NCBI GenBank assembly: GCA_041752475.1
Contig: JBGSWK010000042.1
Span: 15,676 to 79,675, forward strand
DNA from: Pyrinomonadaceae bacterium
GTDB taxonomy: Bacteria > Acidobacteriota > Blastocatellia > Pyrinomonadales > Pyrinomonadaceae
DNA length: 64,000 nucleotides
Reading direction: 5' to 3'
Within the stretch, counting starts at the first letter, position 1; every line of letters begins with the position of its first letter. Made by a program: the position numbers and the translations under genes. Below the pieces are notes generated by a model. That model was not told the DNA's origin, did not search any database, and saw nothing but the letters and a program-made list of their open reading frames with translations. Positions 15,773-22,359 of this stretch are shown piece after piece.

Positions 15773-16240
15773 ATGAAAACAAAGGCAATTATCGCAATCA
15801 CCGCCGTATTCGCTCTCGCGATGGCGGTCTTTGCATTCAATCAAACCAATTCCCCGAAATTGGGCACGGCCGATTGCTGCATGAAAAGCGATTCGTGCCC
15901 GATGAAGGACAAGAATGCCGATTCGGATCGGATGTCGAAAGCCGACAACTGTCCGATGAAAGCTAAGATGTCTGATTCGGAACAAATGTCGATGCACGAC
16001 AATTGCCCGATGAAAGACAAAAAGTCCGATTCGGAAAAGCTGTCTGCCGACAACTGCCCGATGAAGGACAGGATGGCCGATTCGGAAAAGAAGTCTTGCG
16101 AGGACTGTCCGATGAAGGACAAGATGCAAAAAGACGACTGCCCGATGAAAGCCGATCGTGAGAATTCTTCAATGGACAACTGTCCGATGAAGAAGATGCG
16201 CGAGAAGCCGTCGACGGCGATAGCGCCCACGGCGGATTAG
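15773..16240 (+). CDS. Secreted Cys/Met/Asp/Lys-rich repeat protein (7 x CPMK), putative soft-metal binder
   Basis: Signal peptide MKTKAIIAITAVFALAMAVFA; repeats D(N/D/S)CPMK(D/A)K...DSE at about 11-17-aa spacing; GGAG RBS; the DNA repeat gacaactg(t/c)ccgatgaa recurs. Confidence 0.7.
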   Translation: MKTKAIIAITAVFALAMAVFAFNQTNSPKLGTADCCMKSDSCPMKDKNADSDRMSKADNCPMKAKMSDSEQMSMHDNCPMKDKKSDSEKLSADNCPMKDRMADSEKKSCEDCPMKDKMQKDDCPMKADRENSSMDNCPMKKMREKPSTAIAPTAD

Positions 16241-17100: not shown

Positions 17101-17280
17101 AGAGAGAGCTGTTTGCCCACGAAATACGCGAAAAGCGCAAAAAGATATTATTTTCCGCTCGCTCTCGTGTATTTTGGGTGTTTCGCGGGAAAGAAAATCT
17201 CGAAAGTGAAATTTGGGTTTAAGCCGTCGCCCGCAACTTTTGCAGGCAGACGGCTTGTGTTGTTCGCGAAGATGTTTGAA

Positions 17281-17353
<73 letters not shown>

Positions 17354-17409
17354 ATAGCCTAATCAGTTTAGTAAATCGGCCCGAAATCGGCAAATTTCAC
17401 AACGAGATA

Positions 17410-17582: not shown

Positions 17583-18089
17583 TCAGGCTTGATTCGCGGC
17601 GATCATTTTTTCGGCGAGTTTCTGAAACGCTTCTTCGACGCGTTCGCCTGACTTGGCACTCGTACGGAACATTTTCCAACCGAAATTCATCATCTGTTCG
17701 AGTTCGGCCGGAAGAACGTCAAACTGTTCGGTAAGGTCGTTTTTATTGAAAAGAACGATGAACGGCAAGCGCCCGACCTCGCGCTCGACCATCTGCTGAA
17801 TCGAGAACGCGGTCACGAACGTTTCGTGACGAGTCAGATCGACGACGATAAAATAACCCGACGCACCGCGAAGAAACGATGGACGGATCTTGAATTCGGA
17901 GTCTTCGCCCTGAAGGTCCCACAGCAAAAGATTTACGTCTTCGTCGCCTGCACGGACCAGCTTTTTGTCGATCTTCACCCCGATCGTCGAATGATACTTG
18001 TCCGAATAGATGCTTTGCACGAAACGCCGCACAAGACTTGTCTTTCCGACGCCGGTTGCGCCAAGCATACATATTTTCTTCTGAATCAT
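17583..18089 (-). CDS. Ras/Rab-like small GTPase
   Basis: G1 GATGVGKT, G2 STIG, G3 WDLQG, G4 NKND, G5 TSAK; ATG 18089 forms an ATGA overlap with the upstream stop. Confidence 0.85.
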   Translation of the reverse strand: MIQKKICMLGATGVGKTSLVRRFVQSIYSDKYHSTIGVKIDKKLVRAGDEDVNLLLWDLQGEDSEFKIRPSFLRGASGYFIVVDLTRHETFVTAFSIQQMVEREVGRLPFIVLFNKNDLTEQFDVLPAELEQMMNFGWKMFRTSAKSGERVEEAFQKLAEKMIAANQA

Positions 18090-19762
18090 TTTTCTTCCAA
18101 AAGCACCTTGAAACGGACGCCGCACACACCGGTTCCGCCGGCAGTTCCGACGCCGACGGCCTTGAAACTCGAGCTGACGGACTTGAGAAGTTCCGAGCGG
18201 GAGTAAAGTTCCGCAAGGATCTTGTCGGCCCGAGACTGACTGATCTCCGCATTGATCTCGTCGGTTCCGGTCGGGTCGGCGACGCCCTCGATCTCGACCC
18301 GAAAACCGCGCCCGGCGGCCTTCGAGACGCGGTACAGATCTTCAAAACTGGCGATCAACGACGACACGGTTTGAGCCTCGCGATCGAGATAGTCCGTCGA
18401 ACCACACACGAAACGGATATTCTCCGATTCGATCGCGCGCTTCAGCGATTCGAAACCGACCTGAAACGATTTTACACCGTTGAGCACGGGGGCGAATCTG
18501 CGGGATTCGTCGAACCACGTCCGTGGCGCATCGCCGTCGGCGAATAAGATTCCGTTTTCGTACGATAGCGTAACCCCTGCGGGCGGAACGAGCAAGCGCC
18601 GCGCGCGTTCCAGAACGAACGGCGTCGCGTTGTCCTGAAACGGTTTCCATATCTGTTGAACGTCGTCAGCGTCGAGCCGATACTCGGCGCGGATCGCTTC
18701 GGGATCGGCGGCGAGTTCGTCGCGCAGGCCGGAAATCGAATGCGTGAAAAACCCGCGTTCGGCTTCTGCCACGACAAATCCGGGTTCGCTTTTCAAGCGC
18801 GAAACGAACCCTGACCAACGCCAGTAGTCGCGAATCCAAAAGAACCCGAGAACGAGTGCCGCGACCAAAACAAGACCCGCAACTGCATTGAGCGGCGTCA
18901 GCGGCCCGCGTTTTTCATTCGCGCCGCTTCCGAGCTGAACCTGCAGACATCGTTCGAGCGTCGGGCGCGACCGTTCGAAAACGGATGCGTCGCCGCTGAA
19001 ATCGCGAAACTCGTTCTCAAAATCGAACTGAACCTGTTCGATCGCCTCGAGAAGCGACTCGCGCAGAGATAGCGGAGCATTGCCGCGAATGACCGCCGCC
19101 AGTATCGAATCGGGACCGTACTCGATCCAGACCGAAAGGTCGCGGACCTTCAACGCGTCGAGCGTCGCGTCATCCGAAGATTTGAACGAATCGTGGACAA
19201 AATCCTGAATCGCCGTGAGCATCGCCGACACCATATCGCCGTCTTCGGTCGCAGCCGGATCGAGCGACACGTGTTGGAGCAGAATGCCCGTGTCCTTGTG
19301 AATCAGGAACACCTGCTCAACGCGGAAAAGCAGCGTGTTCAGCATCACGACCTCGCCGAACGGCCTTCCGGTCCGCATCGCCTCGAGCCGCCACTTCAGG
19401 CCTTTCGGCGAAAAACTATGTTCAAGGGTCTGGTTGAGCGACTGCACCATCTGGCCGAGCGCTTCGGCGATCGCTTTGCGGATCGCGGGACCGATTATCG
19501 GAAATATCGCCTCGGCGAGAATGCGCGGATTTCGGCGGGCCGACTGCTTGATGTTCTGTTCGACGACGGGAAGCGTCGCCTCGGCGAGTTGGTTGTCGCG
19601 CCGCGCGCTTTTCCTGAGGGCCGACGGAAGTACTTCGCTGACGCTTTCGGACTGGACCAGGATCCGGCGAAGCTCGATCAACTCGTTCTCCGAACCACCG
19701 GCGCCGGAAGACAATTCTGGCGTGTCGGGAAAACCGTCGGGATTGTCGACGCGGTCAGGCAT
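18086..19762 (-). CDS. Bitopic membrane protein: cytoplasmic Roadblock/LC7-like region, one TM helix, C-terminal OmpA/MotB-like domain
   Basis: TM LNAVAGLVLVAALVLGFFWI near residue 300; C-terminus VEIEGVADPTGTDEINAEISQSRADKILAEL resembles the OmpA-like peptidoglycan-binding signature; VEQVFLIHKDTGILLQHVS...MVSAMLTAIQDFV...VWIEYGPDSILAAVIRG looks Roadblock-like (by eye only). Confidence 0.65.
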   Translation of the reverse strand: MPDRVDNPDGFPDTPELSSGAGGSENELIELRRILVQSESVSEVLPSALRKSARRDNQLAEATLPVVEQNIKQSARRNPRILAEAIFPIIGPAIRKAIAEALGQMVQSLNQTLEHSFSPKGLKWRLEAMRTGRPFGEVVMLNTLLFRVEQVFLIHKDTGILLQHVSLDPAATEDGDMVSAMLTAIQDFVHDSFKSSDDATLDALKVRDLSVWIEYGPDSILAAVIRGNAPLSLRESLLEAIEQVQFDFENEFRDFSGDASVFERSRPTLERCLQVQLGSGANEKRGPLTPLNAVAGLVLVAALVLGFFWIRDYWRWSGFVSRLKSEPGFVVAEAERGFFTHSISGLRDELAADPEAIRAEYRLDADDVQQIWKPFQDNATPFVLERARRLLVPPAGVTLSYENGILFADGDAPRTWFDESRRFAPVLNGVKSFQVGFESLKRAIESENIRFVCGSTDYLDREAQTVSSLIASFEDLYRVSKAAGRGFRVEIEGVADPTGTDEINAEISQSRADKILAELYSRSELLKSVSSSFKAVGVGTAGGTGVCGVRFKVLLEEK

Positions 19763-19864
19763 TTGGATTTTGGAATCGGGATTTGTGATTTGTGATTTCC
19801 GCTAGCCGATACAGAATTACCGGACTTAAATTCCGAAATCGCCAATCCCGAATCCCAAATACTC
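19763..19864. repeat. Intercistronic GGATTT/AAATCC element between two minus-strand genes
   Basis: Minus-strand sense: TAG-GAGTATTTGGGATTCGGGATTGGCGATTTCGGAATTT ... GGAAATCACAAATCACAAATCCCGATTCCAAAATCCAA-ATG; about 21 of 28 aligned arm positions are complementary. Confidence 0.7.
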
Positions 19865-20419
19865 CTAATCTGTCTCCGGAAGATTGAAGTCGTTGGTCAA
19901 ACGCATCGCCATTTCGGTAAACAGTTCGGCCAACGCGGTTCGATCAGCCTTGTCCTCGCGGATTTCGGACGACTCGCGGTCGAGCGATCCGAGCATCTCG
20001 GCGTGCCGTTTCTGGATCTCGTCCGAAAGGTTTTTCGATTGGCTCAAAAGCTGTTGGCGCAGATCGCTCTCCGATTTCGCAGCCTGTTCGTTGATCGTCG
20101 CGACATTCTTGTCGAGGTGATGCGAAATATCCTTGAGGCCGTCCGAAAGCGACCGAACGGCGTCGGTCCGCGCGTTTTGCTCGCCGACAAGGCGGTCGGC
20201 GAGCGACTTCACCTCGCCTTTCATAAATTCCTCAAGAGCGTCGAGTTTCTTCCGCGTTTCGTCGCGCATATCGGAGATGTCCTTTGAAAGGCGCTCTTCC
20301 ATACGTGCAAATCGGCGTTCGATATCGCGTGATTGCGAACCGAACAAAATATCTCTGATCTTGTCGATGTTACCGTCTTCAGCGGCTTCCGAACCGGCTT
20401 TCTTTTTTTCGGGTTTCAT
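19865..20419 (-). CDS. Coiled-coil protein, unknown function
   Basis: 184 aa, heptad-like charged sequence throughout (RMEERLSKDISDMRDETRKKLDALEEFMKGEVKSL...); ATGA overlap with the kinase stop. Confidence 0.6.
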   Translation of the reverse strand: MKPEKKKAGSEAAEDGNIDKIRDILFGSQSRDIERRFARMEERLSKDISDMRDETRKKLDALEEFMKGEVKSLADRLVGEQNARTDAVRSLSDGLKDISHHLDKNVATINEQAAKSESDLRQQLLSQSKNLSDEIQKRHAEMLGSLDRESSEIREDKADRTALAELFTEMAMRLTNDFNLPETD

Positions 20420-22359
20420 ATGTTTACAGCTATTTGGGCCCTTATCTCATTGAATTTACGACTTAATCGCGCAACCGGCTCGGAGACGTCGGCCGCTGAA
20501 CCGGCGGCGAGCTCAAGCTCGGCGCACAGATCCGCCATCATTGACAATCCGACGTTTGCGCTGCTTCCCTTAAGCGTGTGAGCGCGACGCCCGACCAAAT
20601 TCAGATCGCCGCTGGCGGCATCTTTTTCGATCTTCGATATCTCGTCTCCTGCAAATCGAAAATACGTCCCGAATATTTCCTCTACAAAATTCGTTTCGCC
20701 GCGCGATTCAATCGCAGAGAAATTCTCCAAGACCTTGGGGGTAACGTGTTTAGTGATGAAATGTTGAAGCAAATCCGGCTTCAAGTCAAGATTTGATGAC
20801 CCGAAAAAGTCGCCGCAGTATTTCTCCAAAGTGCGCAGCAGACTGTCGCCGGTCAGCGGTTTGCAGAGAAAGTCGTCCATTCCGGCGGCGATGCACTTGT
20901 CTCTTTCGATCTCTTCGGCGTGCGCCGACAACGCGATTATTGCGGTTGAACGGTTTCGCGTCGATGAATCACGGATCATCCGCGTTGCCGCATAGCCGTC
21001 AACTTCGGGCATCTGGCAGTCCATCAGGATCAGGTCAAAATCGCGCGCCGCGGCAAGTTCGACCCCTTTCGCGCCGTTCTCCGCGACCGTGACCCGGCAT
21101 CCGTTCAGTTCAAGCATTTTCCGTATAATCTCGGAACTGATCAGGTTGTCTTCCACCAACAGGACTCGAATCGAGTTCGCCGGCGTTTCGGAAACGTGAA
21201 TGTCGCCTGCATCGCTCAAACCGGGTGCCAGCGGCACCGTGAACCAAAATCTTGCCCCTTCGCCGGGCGAGCTTTCGACACCAATCCCGCCGCCCATCAA
21301 TTCAACAAGTTCCCGCGATATCGCCAGTCCGAGACCCGTTCCTCCGAATTTGCGTGTCGATGAGATGTCACCCTGCGTGAACGGCCGAAACAGCGCATTG
21401 ATCTGCCCCTCACCGATACCGATTCCGGTGTCCGCAACCTCGAATCGGATAAGGCCGCTCCCCGGCTCCGTCGGCGCGACGGTGACCCGGACCGACCCGT
21501 GCGACGTGAACTTGACGGCGTTGCTGATCAGGTTGTTCAGGATCTGCCTCAACCGTCCCGCATCGCCGAGATAGCTTTTGGCGATGTCCCGGGCGAATTC
21601 CGCCTCGAGCGCGAGTCCCTTCGCCTCGGCGCTCGAGCGAAACAGATTCAGCGTTTCACCGACGAGTTCCCGAAGTTCGAACGCCTCGCAACGGAGCCGC
21701 ACCTTGCCGGCCTCCAGCTTGGAAAAGTCCAAAATATCGTTGACCGTTTCCAGCAGCGATGCGATGCTCTGCTTCAGCATCCCGACATAGTTCAACTGTT
21801 CGTCGGTGAGCTCAGTTTCGCCGAGTAAATTTGCGGTGCCGACGATACCGCTGAGCGGGGTGCGGATCTCGTGGCTGACATTGGCGAGGAACGCGGCCTT
21901 CGTTCGGGCCGACTCGAGCGCGGCATCACGGGCCTCGGACAGGTCCTGTTCGAACTCGCGCCGCTGCGAGACATCCTGAAAACTGACTGCGGCGCCGCAA
22001 ATCTCGCCGGCTTCGATGATCGGCGTGCAGACATATTCGACGAACACGTCCGCGCCGTCTGCTCGCACGAAAACGCCGTCGCGCACGTGCGATGCGGTGC
22101 CTTCGGTAAGCGCGAACTGAACCGGACAAACGGCAAGTTCCTGTTCCGATTTTGTCTTGTCCGTTTTGAAGAACGTGAGATCGTAGGGATTTCCGAGGAT
22201 ATCAGCAGCTGCGGTCCCGAGCATTCGCGACGCCGAGTCGTTGACAAAGACAATCGTCCGCGAGCGATCGATGATCGCGACGCCTTCTAGAAGTGACTCG
22301 AGGATCAAATCGTTCAGAGATTCGCGGCCCGAAAGAATTTTTCCGATCACCGGGTTCAT
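20416..22359 (-). CDS. Hybrid sensor histidine kinase (PAS, HisKA, HATPase_c, REC, HPt)
   Basis: H-box SHEIRTPL, N-box NLISNAVKFT, DTGIGI and GGTGLGLAIS, receiver LILMDCQMPEVDG, C-terminal HPt AHTLKGSSANVG. Confidence 0.9.
   Translation of the reverse strand: MNPVIGKILSGRESLNDLILESLLEGVAIIDRSRTIVFVNDSASRMLGTAAADILGNPYDLTFFKTDKTKSEQELAVCPVQFALTEGTASHVRDGVFVRADGADVFVEYVCTPIIEAGEICGAAVSFQDVSQRREFEQDLSEARDAALESARTKAAFLANVSHEIRTPLSGIVGTANLLGETELTDEQLNYVGMLKQSIASLLETVNDILDFSKLEAGKVRLRCEAFELRELVGETLNLFRSSAEAKGLALEAEFARDIAKSYLGDAGRLRQILNNLISNAVKFTSHGSVRVTVAPTEPGSGLIRFEVADTGIGIGEGQINALFRPFTQGDISSTRKFGGTGLGLAISRELVELMGGGIGVESSPGEGARFWFTVPLAPGLSDAGDIHVSETPANSIRVLLVEDNLISSEIIRKMLELNGCRVTVAENGAKGVELAAARDFDLILMDCQMPEVDGYAATRMIRDSSTRNRSTAIIALSAHAEEIERDKCIAAGMDDFLCKPLTGDSLLRTLEKYCGDFFGSSNLDLKPDLLQHFITKHVTPKVLENFSAIESRGETNFVEEIFGTYFRFAGDEISKIEKDAASGDLNLVGRRAHTLKGSSANVGLSMMADLCAELELAAGSAADVSEPVARLSRKFNEIRAQIAVNI

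Follow-up and report, generated by a model that had tools for sequence, protein, structure and literature searches.

The stretch analyzed here, referred to as the window, covers 64,000 nucleotides of contig JBGSWK010000042.1 from a Pyrinomonadaceae bacterium (GenBank assembly GCA_041752475.1) and carries a minus-strand gene cluster encoding a hybrid histidine kinase, a helical protein, a single-pass membrane protein and a Ras/Rab-like small GTPase. As judged from its sequence, this locus almost certainly represents the Group 1 Rup system in an acidobacterium (Blastocatellia/Pyrinomonadaceae-like), because gene order and component descriptions match the published ones (PMC4316618) and the GTPase lacks the Gln of the G3 motif. 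Furthermore, structure prediction indicates that the cytoplasmic domain of the membrane protein, published as DUFX, likely has a longin/Roadblock fold at the superfamily level; this assignment appears to be unreported, as deduced from a search of the open-access literature. A transmembrane G-protein switch, in which the longin-like DUFX platform sets the nucleotide state of Rup and Rup controls a signalling enzyme, is proposed with moderate confidence. The cluster consists of the following genes, listed in the direction of reading:

20416-22359, minus strand: hybrid histidine kinase gene (open reading frame, ORF, of 647 amino acids)
19865-20419, minus strand: gene for a helical protein of predicted coiled-coil type, published as 'DUFY' (ORF of 184 amino acids)
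18086-19762, minus strand: gene for a single-pass inner-membrane protein, published as 'DUFX:OmpA' (ORF of 558 amino acids)
17583-18089, minus strand: gene for a Ras/Rab-like small GTPase of the Group 1 Rup (Rup1) type (168 amino acids, ATG at 18089)

Four co-directional minus-strand genes had already been recognized in an interpretation made without database searches (the sequence-only reading), and the ORFs were confirmed at their positions. Likewise, the ATGA stop/start overlaps reported there were both read directly, namely between the kinase gene and the gene for the 184-aa protein at 20416-20419 ('...aacatATGAaaccc') and between the gene for the 558-aa protein and the GTPase gene at 18086-18089 ('...gaagaaaaATGAttcag'). 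The coiled-coil, DUFX and GTPase genes represent a core of three co-transcribed-looking genes. Promoter and terminator scans of the locus yielded hits at background level and were uninformative.

The Rup family of prokaryotic Ras-superfamily GTPases was defined by comparative genomics (Wuichet & Sogaard-Andersen 2014, PMC4316618). According to this study, the Group 1 Rup neighbourhood comprises three further genes, encoding a cytoplasmic coiled-coil protein, a protein featuring a conserved unknown domain, after which an inner-membrane helix and an OmpA domain usually come, and a c-di-GMP enzyme or histidine kinase whose N-terminal region contains an invariant Gln. A diguanylate cyclase is found among the output proteins, and Table S2 of the same study gives the order DUFY > DUFX:OmpA > Rup for Nostoc, Anabaena, Nitrospira, Mesorhizobium, Sorangium, Alteromonas and others. 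Carriers of the system include Nostoc punctiforme (Npun_F1891 region), Anabaena PCC 7120, Mesorhizobium loti (mlr3243 region) and Flavobacterium. Group 1 Rup GTPases are described as being devoid of the catalytic Gln in G3, and the N-terminal Gln of the output protein was proposed as the source of the missing catalytic residue (PMC4316618). Moreover, Rup GTPases were said to be uncoupled from MglB homologs, and DUFX was called a domain of unknown function (PMC4316618). The sequence-only reading had considered a fused, envelope-anchored and kinase-associated architecture as unknown; this view had to be abandoned, since just such an architecture was published under the name Group 1 Rup (PMC4316618). 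Experimental work on any Group 1 Rup member was not found in the open-access literature, a search by which a paper in a subscription journal could be missed; apart from the 2014 study, it retrieved only uses of Rup1 as a phylogenetic reference group.

Several features of the window correspond to these descriptions. The GTPase matched the Pfam family Ras (1e-29), with Rab23 and other Rabs as the best solved relatives, and its motifs GATGVGKT, T36, WDLQG, NKND and TSAK are conserved in 78 homologs from related loci. Thus the five G motifs listed previously are intact, and the features of the Rup clade (Ras-like G1 to G5 including the Asp of DxxG, a length of less than 240 amino acids) were found in a protein of 168 amino acids, by motifs and matches. 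The DxxG Asp58 is invariant (78 of 78 homologs), and a Gln following DxxG was observed in none of the 78. The window GTPase shares this Group 1 Rup feature, its G3 motif reading WDLQGED with Glu at the position of Ras-Gln61. At the position corresponding to Ras-Gly12, bulky residues (F, T or Y) occur among the homologs, and Thr is present in the window GTPase. As a separate observation, two Pyrinomonadaceae loci (L008:5417-6601 and L011:8605-9779) encode two tandem Rup GTPase paralogs after DUFX.

The adjoining DUFY gene and the gene for the DUFX, transmembrane and OmpA protein are arranged in the order given in Table S2, and a histidine kinase is associated with the cluster, as in other Group 1 Rup loci. 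Differences concern the kinase, which is encoded upstream and not beside the GTPase and is devoid of the Gln-bearing N-terminal domain, and the taxonomic origin: Acidobacteria were not among the Group 1 Rup genomes of PMC4316618, and the window therefore adds a new phylum to the 2014 set. The names borne by homologs place the window in Acidobacteriota, close to Pyrinomonadaceae/Blastocatellia. Regarding the published absence of a coupled MglB, no Robl_LC7 sequence match was obtained for the four window proteins, and yet DUFX is predicted to adopt the longin/Roadblock fold.

For the analysis of conservation, one genome per species was considered, and 80 loci were fetched and compared by tblastn with the four window proteins. 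The number of species genomes with a DUFX relative is at least 581. Order and strand of the coiled-coil, DUFX and GTPase genes were the same in approximately 76 of the 80 loci (Acidobacteriota, Nostocales and others), exceptions being mostly contigs that end within the locus. A homolog of the 184-aa protein showing the conserved family motifs (N-terminal GN.DKIRDILFG.Q.RD.EKRF, C-terminal K.DR..LA.LFTE.A.RL) was located directly upstream of DUFX in 76/80 loci. This protein contains no Pro residue between residues 4 and 180 and yielded weak matches only, all to long-helix families. Because of these two features, its coiled-coil nature is to be read as a prediction, which agrees with the published description of the family (PMC4316618).

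The 558-aa membrane protein was subdivided into the following regions:

19370-19693, minus strand: conserved N-terminal helical region, residues 24-131 (low-confidence model, high conservation)
18944-19360, minus strand: predicted longin/Roadblock-fold domain, core of 'DUFX', residues 135-273 (AlphaFold2, AF2, and Foldseek)
18824-18907, minus strand: single transmembrane helix, residues 286-313 (sole KD19 segment of at least 1.6)
18410-18778, minus strand: periplasmic alpha/beta modules, residues 329-451 (predicted local distance difference test, pLDDT, ~90; weak Foldseek matches to BonA and DolP)
18095-18400, minus strand: OmpA/Pal-like domain, residues 455-556 (Foldseek matches, model pLDDT ~90)

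Sequence searches with the cytoplasmic part provided no assignment: residues 1-285 matched no Pfam/NCBIfam model at E-values up to 1, phmmer against the PDB retrieved nothing relevant, and a profile of 26 DUFX sequences yielded a lone chance match in the PDB, namely to a phage tail protein (E 0.14). In the full-length AF2 model, residues 135-273 are ordered as a-b-b-a-b-b-b-a-a (a, helix; b, strand) at moderate confidence (pLDDT 50-85), and Foldseek searches with this model returned OmpA/Pal and BON proteins as well as AP sigma subunits, COPI zeta and Mon1-Ccz1. A domain-only AF2 model, built on a more diverse alignment of 43 sequences, reached a pLDDT of 86.9 and a predicted template modelling score (pTM) of 0.79, with the element order a-a-b-b-a-b-b-b-a-a-a. 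The hallmark of the superfamily, a five-stranded antiparallel sheet (beta-beta-alpha-beta-beta-beta) with flanking helices, is present in the predicted DUFX structure, and all 50 of the 50 best PDB matches of the domain-only model belong to the longin/Roadblock superfamily. These include the AP-1, AP-2 and AP-3 sigma subunits (E 1e-4, template modelling (TM) score up to 0.71), COPI zeta, the Sec22b longin domain (TM-score 0.71), the TRAPP subunits Bet5, Trs23 and sedlin, Mon1-Ccz1 complexed with Ypt7, and CPLANE. Further matches were Ego3, LAMTOR/Ragulator, Rag C-terminal domains, GATOR1, dynein LC7, Asgard Roadblocks, a Streptomyces Roadblock protein, MglC (7ct3) and MglB (3t1r, rank 37). Many of the matched proteins regulate small GTPases, e.g., Mon1-Ccz1, Ragulator/LAMTOR, GATOR1, MglB and MglC.

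A Roadblock/LC7 (MglB-like) fold had been suspected in this protein from the sequence alone, and HHpred or Foldseek on an AlphaFold model of residues 100-260 (approximately) had been recommended as a check. The superfamily held up in that comparison, with longin/Roadblock structures matched throughout. The MglB-like label did not, as no sequence link exists and longin domains are nearer: TM-scores of 0.6-0.7 over 130-140 columns were obtained against longin structures (AP sigma, Sec22b), as compared to 0.35-0.5 over 80-110 columns against MglB/LC7. The longer alignments and higher TM-scores render the term MglB-like too specific. In the model, the DUFX domain joins a Roadblock-style N-terminal helix with longin-style C-terminal helices.

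Conservation of DUFX peaks in beta1 (RVEQVFLIH), in the central helix (residues 174-193, DMVSAMLTAIQDFV.DSF) and at the end of beta5 (VIRG, with invariant Arg226-Gly227); moreover, Arg147-Val-Glu-Gln150 is near-invariant in the alignments. The domain occurs in 3867 clusters at 50% identity (E <=1e-3) and is always located at approximately residues 120-300 of proteins that are 440-1000 amino acids long. [quoted passage not shown] In the MglA-MglB and Ragulator structures, the central helices of such platforms form the GTPase-binding face, which is a lead for DUFX and not a test.

Outside the fold domain, residues 24-131 (including FPIIGPAIRKAIAEAL...MVQSLNQTLEHS) are among the best-conserved parts of the 558-aa protein and form long helices, with pLDDT values below 50 at residues 74-113 of the full-length AF2 model. 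Residues 81-99 are moderately hydrophobic (KD19 1.43). This region may represent an amphipathic membrane-associated helix or a partner-binding helix. The single transmembrane helix postulated by the sequence-only reading agrees with the one hydrophobic segment found at residues 286-313, and AF2 places a helix at residues 290-325. Since the large N-terminal part has no signal peptide, it is predicted to be cytoplasmic, which in turn places the OmpA-like domain in the periplasm beside the peptidoglycan.

The C-terminal region was also correctly anticipated to be OmpA-like. Its best Foldseek matches were 5wtl, 5n2c, 4g4w and 1oap (E 4e-5 to 6e-4), and PF00691 is annotated on many close homologs, which pass the Pfam cut-off; the window protein itself stays below it (19 vs 27.2 bits, E 1.8e-3). 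The motif residues Asp (VADPTG) and Arg (SQSRA) are kept within the segments VADPTG....N..IS.SRA. Residues 329-451 are tentatively modelled as BON-like, and Pfam BON occupies the equivalent position in longer DUFX family members. In two of these (P0177 and P0179, 911-916 amino acids), Pfam BON domains are inserted between the transmembrane helix and OmpA, which argues for a BON plus OmpA module as the periplasmic part of the family. Furthermore, DUFX variants of approximately 440-450 amino acids without the OmpA-like domain were detected (L009:2891-4117, L010:6947-8296, P0060, P0069, P0077 and others). These are 58-65% identical over the remainder and have kept the upstream kinase, suggesting that the peptidoglycan anchor is dispensable in some lineages.

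Features of the kinase gene and the downstream boundary of the module are as follows:

21955-22311, minus strand: PAS domain of the kinase (Pfam, residues 17-135)
21706-21900, minus strand: HisKA domain of the kinase (Pfam, residues 154-218)
21226-21567, minus strand: HATPase_c domain of the kinase (Pfam, residues 265-378)
20827-21165, minus strand: REC domain of the kinase (Pfam Response_reg, residues 399-511)
20437-20676, minus strand: HPt domain of the kinase (Pfam Hpt, residues 562-641)
17280-17354, minus strand: tRNA-Met (CAT) gene, immediately downstream of the GTPase gene and bounding the module

The five kinase domains matched with E-values of 5e-11 to 1e-30 and occur in exactly the order deduced beforehand for a PAS/HisKA/HATPase/REC/HPt hybrid kinase. 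The enzyme is soluble, a hydropathy scan revealing zero hydrophobic segments. By means of tblastn, the coiled-coil gene was found to have a kinase homolog (36-57% identity) directly upstream of it in each of the 14 informative loci from the closest clade (L001-L015), within which DUFX identity falls to 46%, whereas such a homolog was present at this position in none of the 65 more distant loci. The four-gene adjacency assumed by the sequence-only reading therefore applies in part: the three-gene core is kept across phyla, but the upstream kinase is confined to the nearest clade.

In the distant loci, the gene or genes following the GTPase encode PAS proteins, adenylate cyclase, HisKA/HATPase kinases and hybrid kinases. 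These signalling genes start with an unannotated N-terminal domain of 130-150 residues, which is of type A or type B; one or both types were identified in 57/65 distant loci (type A in 43 loci, type B in 34). The type A domain (~130 amino acids) is encoded directly 3' of the Rup GTPase (e.g., L017:9199-9600, L065:9127-9525 and L053:9184-9585) and is either stand-alone, as in Nostocales, or fused to PAS or adenylate cyclase. Its Gln115, located in a 'QQK' motif, is invariant in 17 of 17 sequences. The domain has zero Pfam or PDB sequence matches, a PDB profile search was empty, and kinship with DUFX was assigned a probability of 0.1% by hhalign. The type B domain (~150 amino acids, PFLENFLIDAEEFW...QKAREN), likewise unannotated, forms the N-terminus of histidine kinases and hybrid kinases that follow the GTPase (e.g., L024:9113-9560, L043:9383-9830 and L065:9548-10010). 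Both types correspond to the 'N-terminal region with invariant glutamine' described in PMC4316618.

Hidden Markov models of the type A and type B domains matched 0 window ORFs, and tblastn provided chance matches only. Accordingly, the window kinase begins directly with PAS and carries neither of the two domains at its N-terminus. Since the tRNA-Met gene lies directly 3' of the GTPase gene, the module in the Pyrinomonadaceae window is devoid of a downstream output gene. From HisKA to HPt, the window kinase shares 38% identity with the type B hybrid kinases of three distant loci (L024, L030 and L032). The presence of the upstream kinase in 14/14 closest loci and the absence of type A/B domains from the window indicate that this clade looks like a variant in which the usual downstream output gene was replaced by an upstream PAS hybrid kinase without adaptor domain.

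In the proposed transmembrane G-protein switch, the periplasmic OmpA-like (and BON-like) part would anchor the 558-aa protein to the cell wall and sense the state or position of the envelope. The cytoplasmic longin-like domain, probably dimeric, would form a platform at the inner face of the membrane, bind Rup and set its nucleotide state, in the role of a GAP providing the catalytic residues that Rup does not have, or in that of a GEF. Candidates for contact or catalysis are the invariant Arg226-Gly227, residues of the near-invariant stretch Arg147-Val-Glu-Gln150 (Glu149 and Gln150) and the conserved central helix. In this way, the envelope's condition would be translated into the GTP- or GDP-bound form of Rup. 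Rup would then act on a signalling enzyme of the cytoplasm, with the helical protein as a possible intermediary. In the window, this enzyme would be the soluble PAS hybrid kinase, whose gene lies immediately upstream and appears translationally coupled to that of the helical protein; in most other lineages, it would be a downstream kinase, cyclase or PAS protein equipped with the dedicated N-terminal domain. The kinase is linked to the module on account of the ATGA overlap, the upstream kinase in 14/14 loci and the signalling gene next to the GTPase in 57/65 loci. Direct regulation of Rup by the DUFX domain, as a separate part of this proposal, has a roughly even chance of being correct. The wider claim that DUFX, which thousands of bacterial proteins carry, regulates the Rab/Ras-like Rup1 GTPases as a longin-type GAP, GEF or membrane receptor is tentative, its chances being put somewhat below even.

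A number of points weigh against the proposed switch. The fold assignment is based on a predicted structure, and the corresponding Foldseek E-values are modest (1e-4 to 6e-3), while Pfam and PDB profile searches provided no sequence or profile link between DUFX and Roadblock/longin families. The contact between DUFX and Rup is suggested by analogy. A fusion of DUFX with a GTPase, or with a kinase or other partner, was absent among ten long family members (790-1004 amino acids), which contained only extra BON and OmpA domains. Moreover, the authors of the 2014 study place the missing Gln in the N-terminal domain of the output protein, a domain that is absent from the window kinase, and the bulky residue (F, T or Y) at the position of Ras-Gly12 disfavours a classical GAP providing an Arg finger.

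Some of these points also speak for an alternative in which the longin-like domain only scaffolds or dimerizes the membrane protein or binds a small ligand, Rup being regulated instead by the coiled-coil protein or by the Gln domain of the output protein. This explanation is published as a hypothesis with respect to the Gln domain (PMC4316618) and agrees with the invariance of Gln115 in the 'QQK' motif of type A, with the missing sequence relation between DUFX and MglB, and with the lack of DUFX-GTPase fusions among the ten long members. However, DUFX, DUFY and Rup persist in the window and in its 14 closest relatives without any type A/B domain being present; the Gln of the output domain can therefore not be a universal regulator. 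DUFX and Rup are furthermore the most tightly linked pair, adjacent in approximately 76/80 loci and overlapping by ATGA in the window, and a pure scaffold would not need the conserved polar residues Arg, Glu, Gln and Asp in beta1, the central helix and beta5. Hence, scaffolding as the sole role of the domain is considered unlikely.

Signal flow in the opposite direction was also taken into account for the transmembrane switch. In this case, the PAS kinase and the GTPase would control the membrane protein, whose OmpA/BON part would alter envelope tethering, for example in polarity, anchoring of a motility apparatus or linkage of outer membrane and peptidoglycan. Such inside-out signalling is compatible with the window kinase, which senses through a cytoplasmic PAS domain of its own and carries no adaptor domain specific to Rup, with the role of OmpA-like domains as structural anchors (MotB, Pal and TagL), and with the action of prokaryotic Ras-like GTPases, MglA among them, on polarity and motility. 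On the other hand, the variable partner across the family is an output enzyme (kinase, adenylate cyclase) with a dedicated N-terminal domain, which fits a flow from the envelope to the cytoplasm, and some relatives (L009 and L010) do not possess the OmpA domain at all. Inside-out signalling was consequently rated as quite unlikely.

A low probability was also assigned to the explanation that the hybrid kinase is an independent two-component gene merely located upstream in this clade, the functional unit being the three-gene core. The upstream kinase is missing from all 65 distant loci, the window kinase is devoid of the domain marking Rup-associated outputs, and the module encodes no response regulator, as would be expected for an unrelated neighbour. 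Nevertheless, the kinase gene is joined to the coiled-coil gene by the ATGA overlap and is kept in 14/14 informative loci even where DUFX identity drops to 46%. In addition, the same clade has lost the usual downstream output gene, for which the kinase looks like a replacement, and the similarity of its HisKA-to-HPt part to type B hybrid kinases (38% identity) points in the same direction. Finally, weak PADLOC matches, in which the coiled-coil protein aligned with ZorA tails (E 3e-4 to 7e-3) and the OmpA motif with ZorB (E 2.5e-4), raised the possibility of a Zorya-related (ZorA/ZorB) module for anti-phage defence or of a stator-like motor. This explanation is highly improbable and was effectively excluded: the matches fall far short of family level and extend over generic long-helix and OmpA segments only, neither a MotA/ExbB channel domain nor ZorC/ZorD was found, and the neighbours (prfA, hpt, rpiB-like and tRNA-Met) do not form a defence island.

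If the transmembrane G-protein switch is correct, the partnership of a Rab/Ras-like GTPase with a longin domain, a hallmark of eukaryotic membrane traffic (Mon1-Ccz1, TRAPP, DENN, AP/COPI small subunits), would already exist in bacteria, where it would be wired to the envelope and to two-component and second-messenger signalling. It would imply that a G protein widely couples cell wall and periplasm to kinases and nucleotide cyclases of the cytoplasm, and would bear on the origin of the eukaryotic GTPase-longin partnership. Rup1, which was used as a reference group in a 2024 preprint, is the bacterial group clustering most tightly with eukaryotic Rab/Ras/Rho/Ran (PMC4316618; bioRxiv 10.1101/2024.02.28.582541). 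The longin/Roadblock prediction for the adjacent membrane protein provides a concrete candidate regulator of Rup1 and contrasts with the published view of Rup GTPases as uncoupled from MglB homologs (PMC4316618). As such, the locus is an ordinary representative of a system that is described but uncharacterized.

Besides the tRNA-Met gene, neighbours of the module in the window are prfA, hpt and an rpiB-like gene. Independently of the module, a 155-aa ORF at 15773-16240 on the plus strand was observed, which encodes a signal-peptide-like N-terminus and in which a Cys-Pro-Met-Lys motif ('CPMKDK' and variants) recurs approximately nine times. The product may be a secreted repeat protein binding soft metals.

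Comparison with known systems places the module next to several GTPase and anchor architectures. The C-terminal fold and the Asp/Arg motif of the window protein match OmpA/Pal/MotB-type anchors with BON domains (YiaD, DolP-like). These anchors, however, are lipoproteins, outer-membrane proteins or stator subunits, none of which has a cytoplasmic longin-like part of 285 residues or a partner GTPase.

As in the MglA/MglB systems of Myxococcus and Thermus, a Ras-superfamily GTPase gene adjoins the gene for a protein of the Roadblock/longin class. MglA differs in having a G3 motif without the conserved Asp and an intrinsic Arg finger, whereas the window GTPase keeps the Asp and shows Rab-like motifs. 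MglB is a soluble Roadblock/LC7 protein (PF03259); the window partner is a 558-aa membrane protein with a transmembrane helix and periplasmic domains fused to it, in which PF03259 (Robl_LC7) was not matched at E-values up to 1. An MglA/MglB module was rejected on the basis of the retained G3 Asp and the absent Robl_LC7 signature.

Actinobacterial conservons (CvnA-D / Mfp) are likewise signalling units of several genes, in which a histidine kinase is combined with a Roadblock-class protein and a small GTPase, an analogy that was drawn by the authors of the 2014 study as well (PMC4316618). They consist of the membrane-bound HAMP-kinase sensor CvnA, the soluble Roadblock protein CvnB, the DUF742 protein CvnC and the MglA-family GTPase CvnD. 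In the window, by comparison, it is the longin-like protein that resides in the membrane, the kinase is a soluble one with PAS, REC and HPt domains, the GTPase is of the Rup type, and DUF742 was not found by Pfam in the module proteins. The assignment to conservons was rejected because of the soluble kinase, the missing DUF742 and the Rup-type GTPase.

Eukaryotic and Asgard longin platforms (Mon1-Ccz1, TRAPP, Ragulator-Rag, GATOR1/FLCN and AP sigma with Arf) represent the best structural matches. Similar to the predicted arrangement in the window, they combine a Rab/Ras-like GTPase partner with a platform near a membrane. Sequence homology to these platforms is not detectable, and, as a further difference, the predicted longin-like fold is found here as a single domain within a bacterial single-pass protein that carries a putative peptidoglycan anchor.

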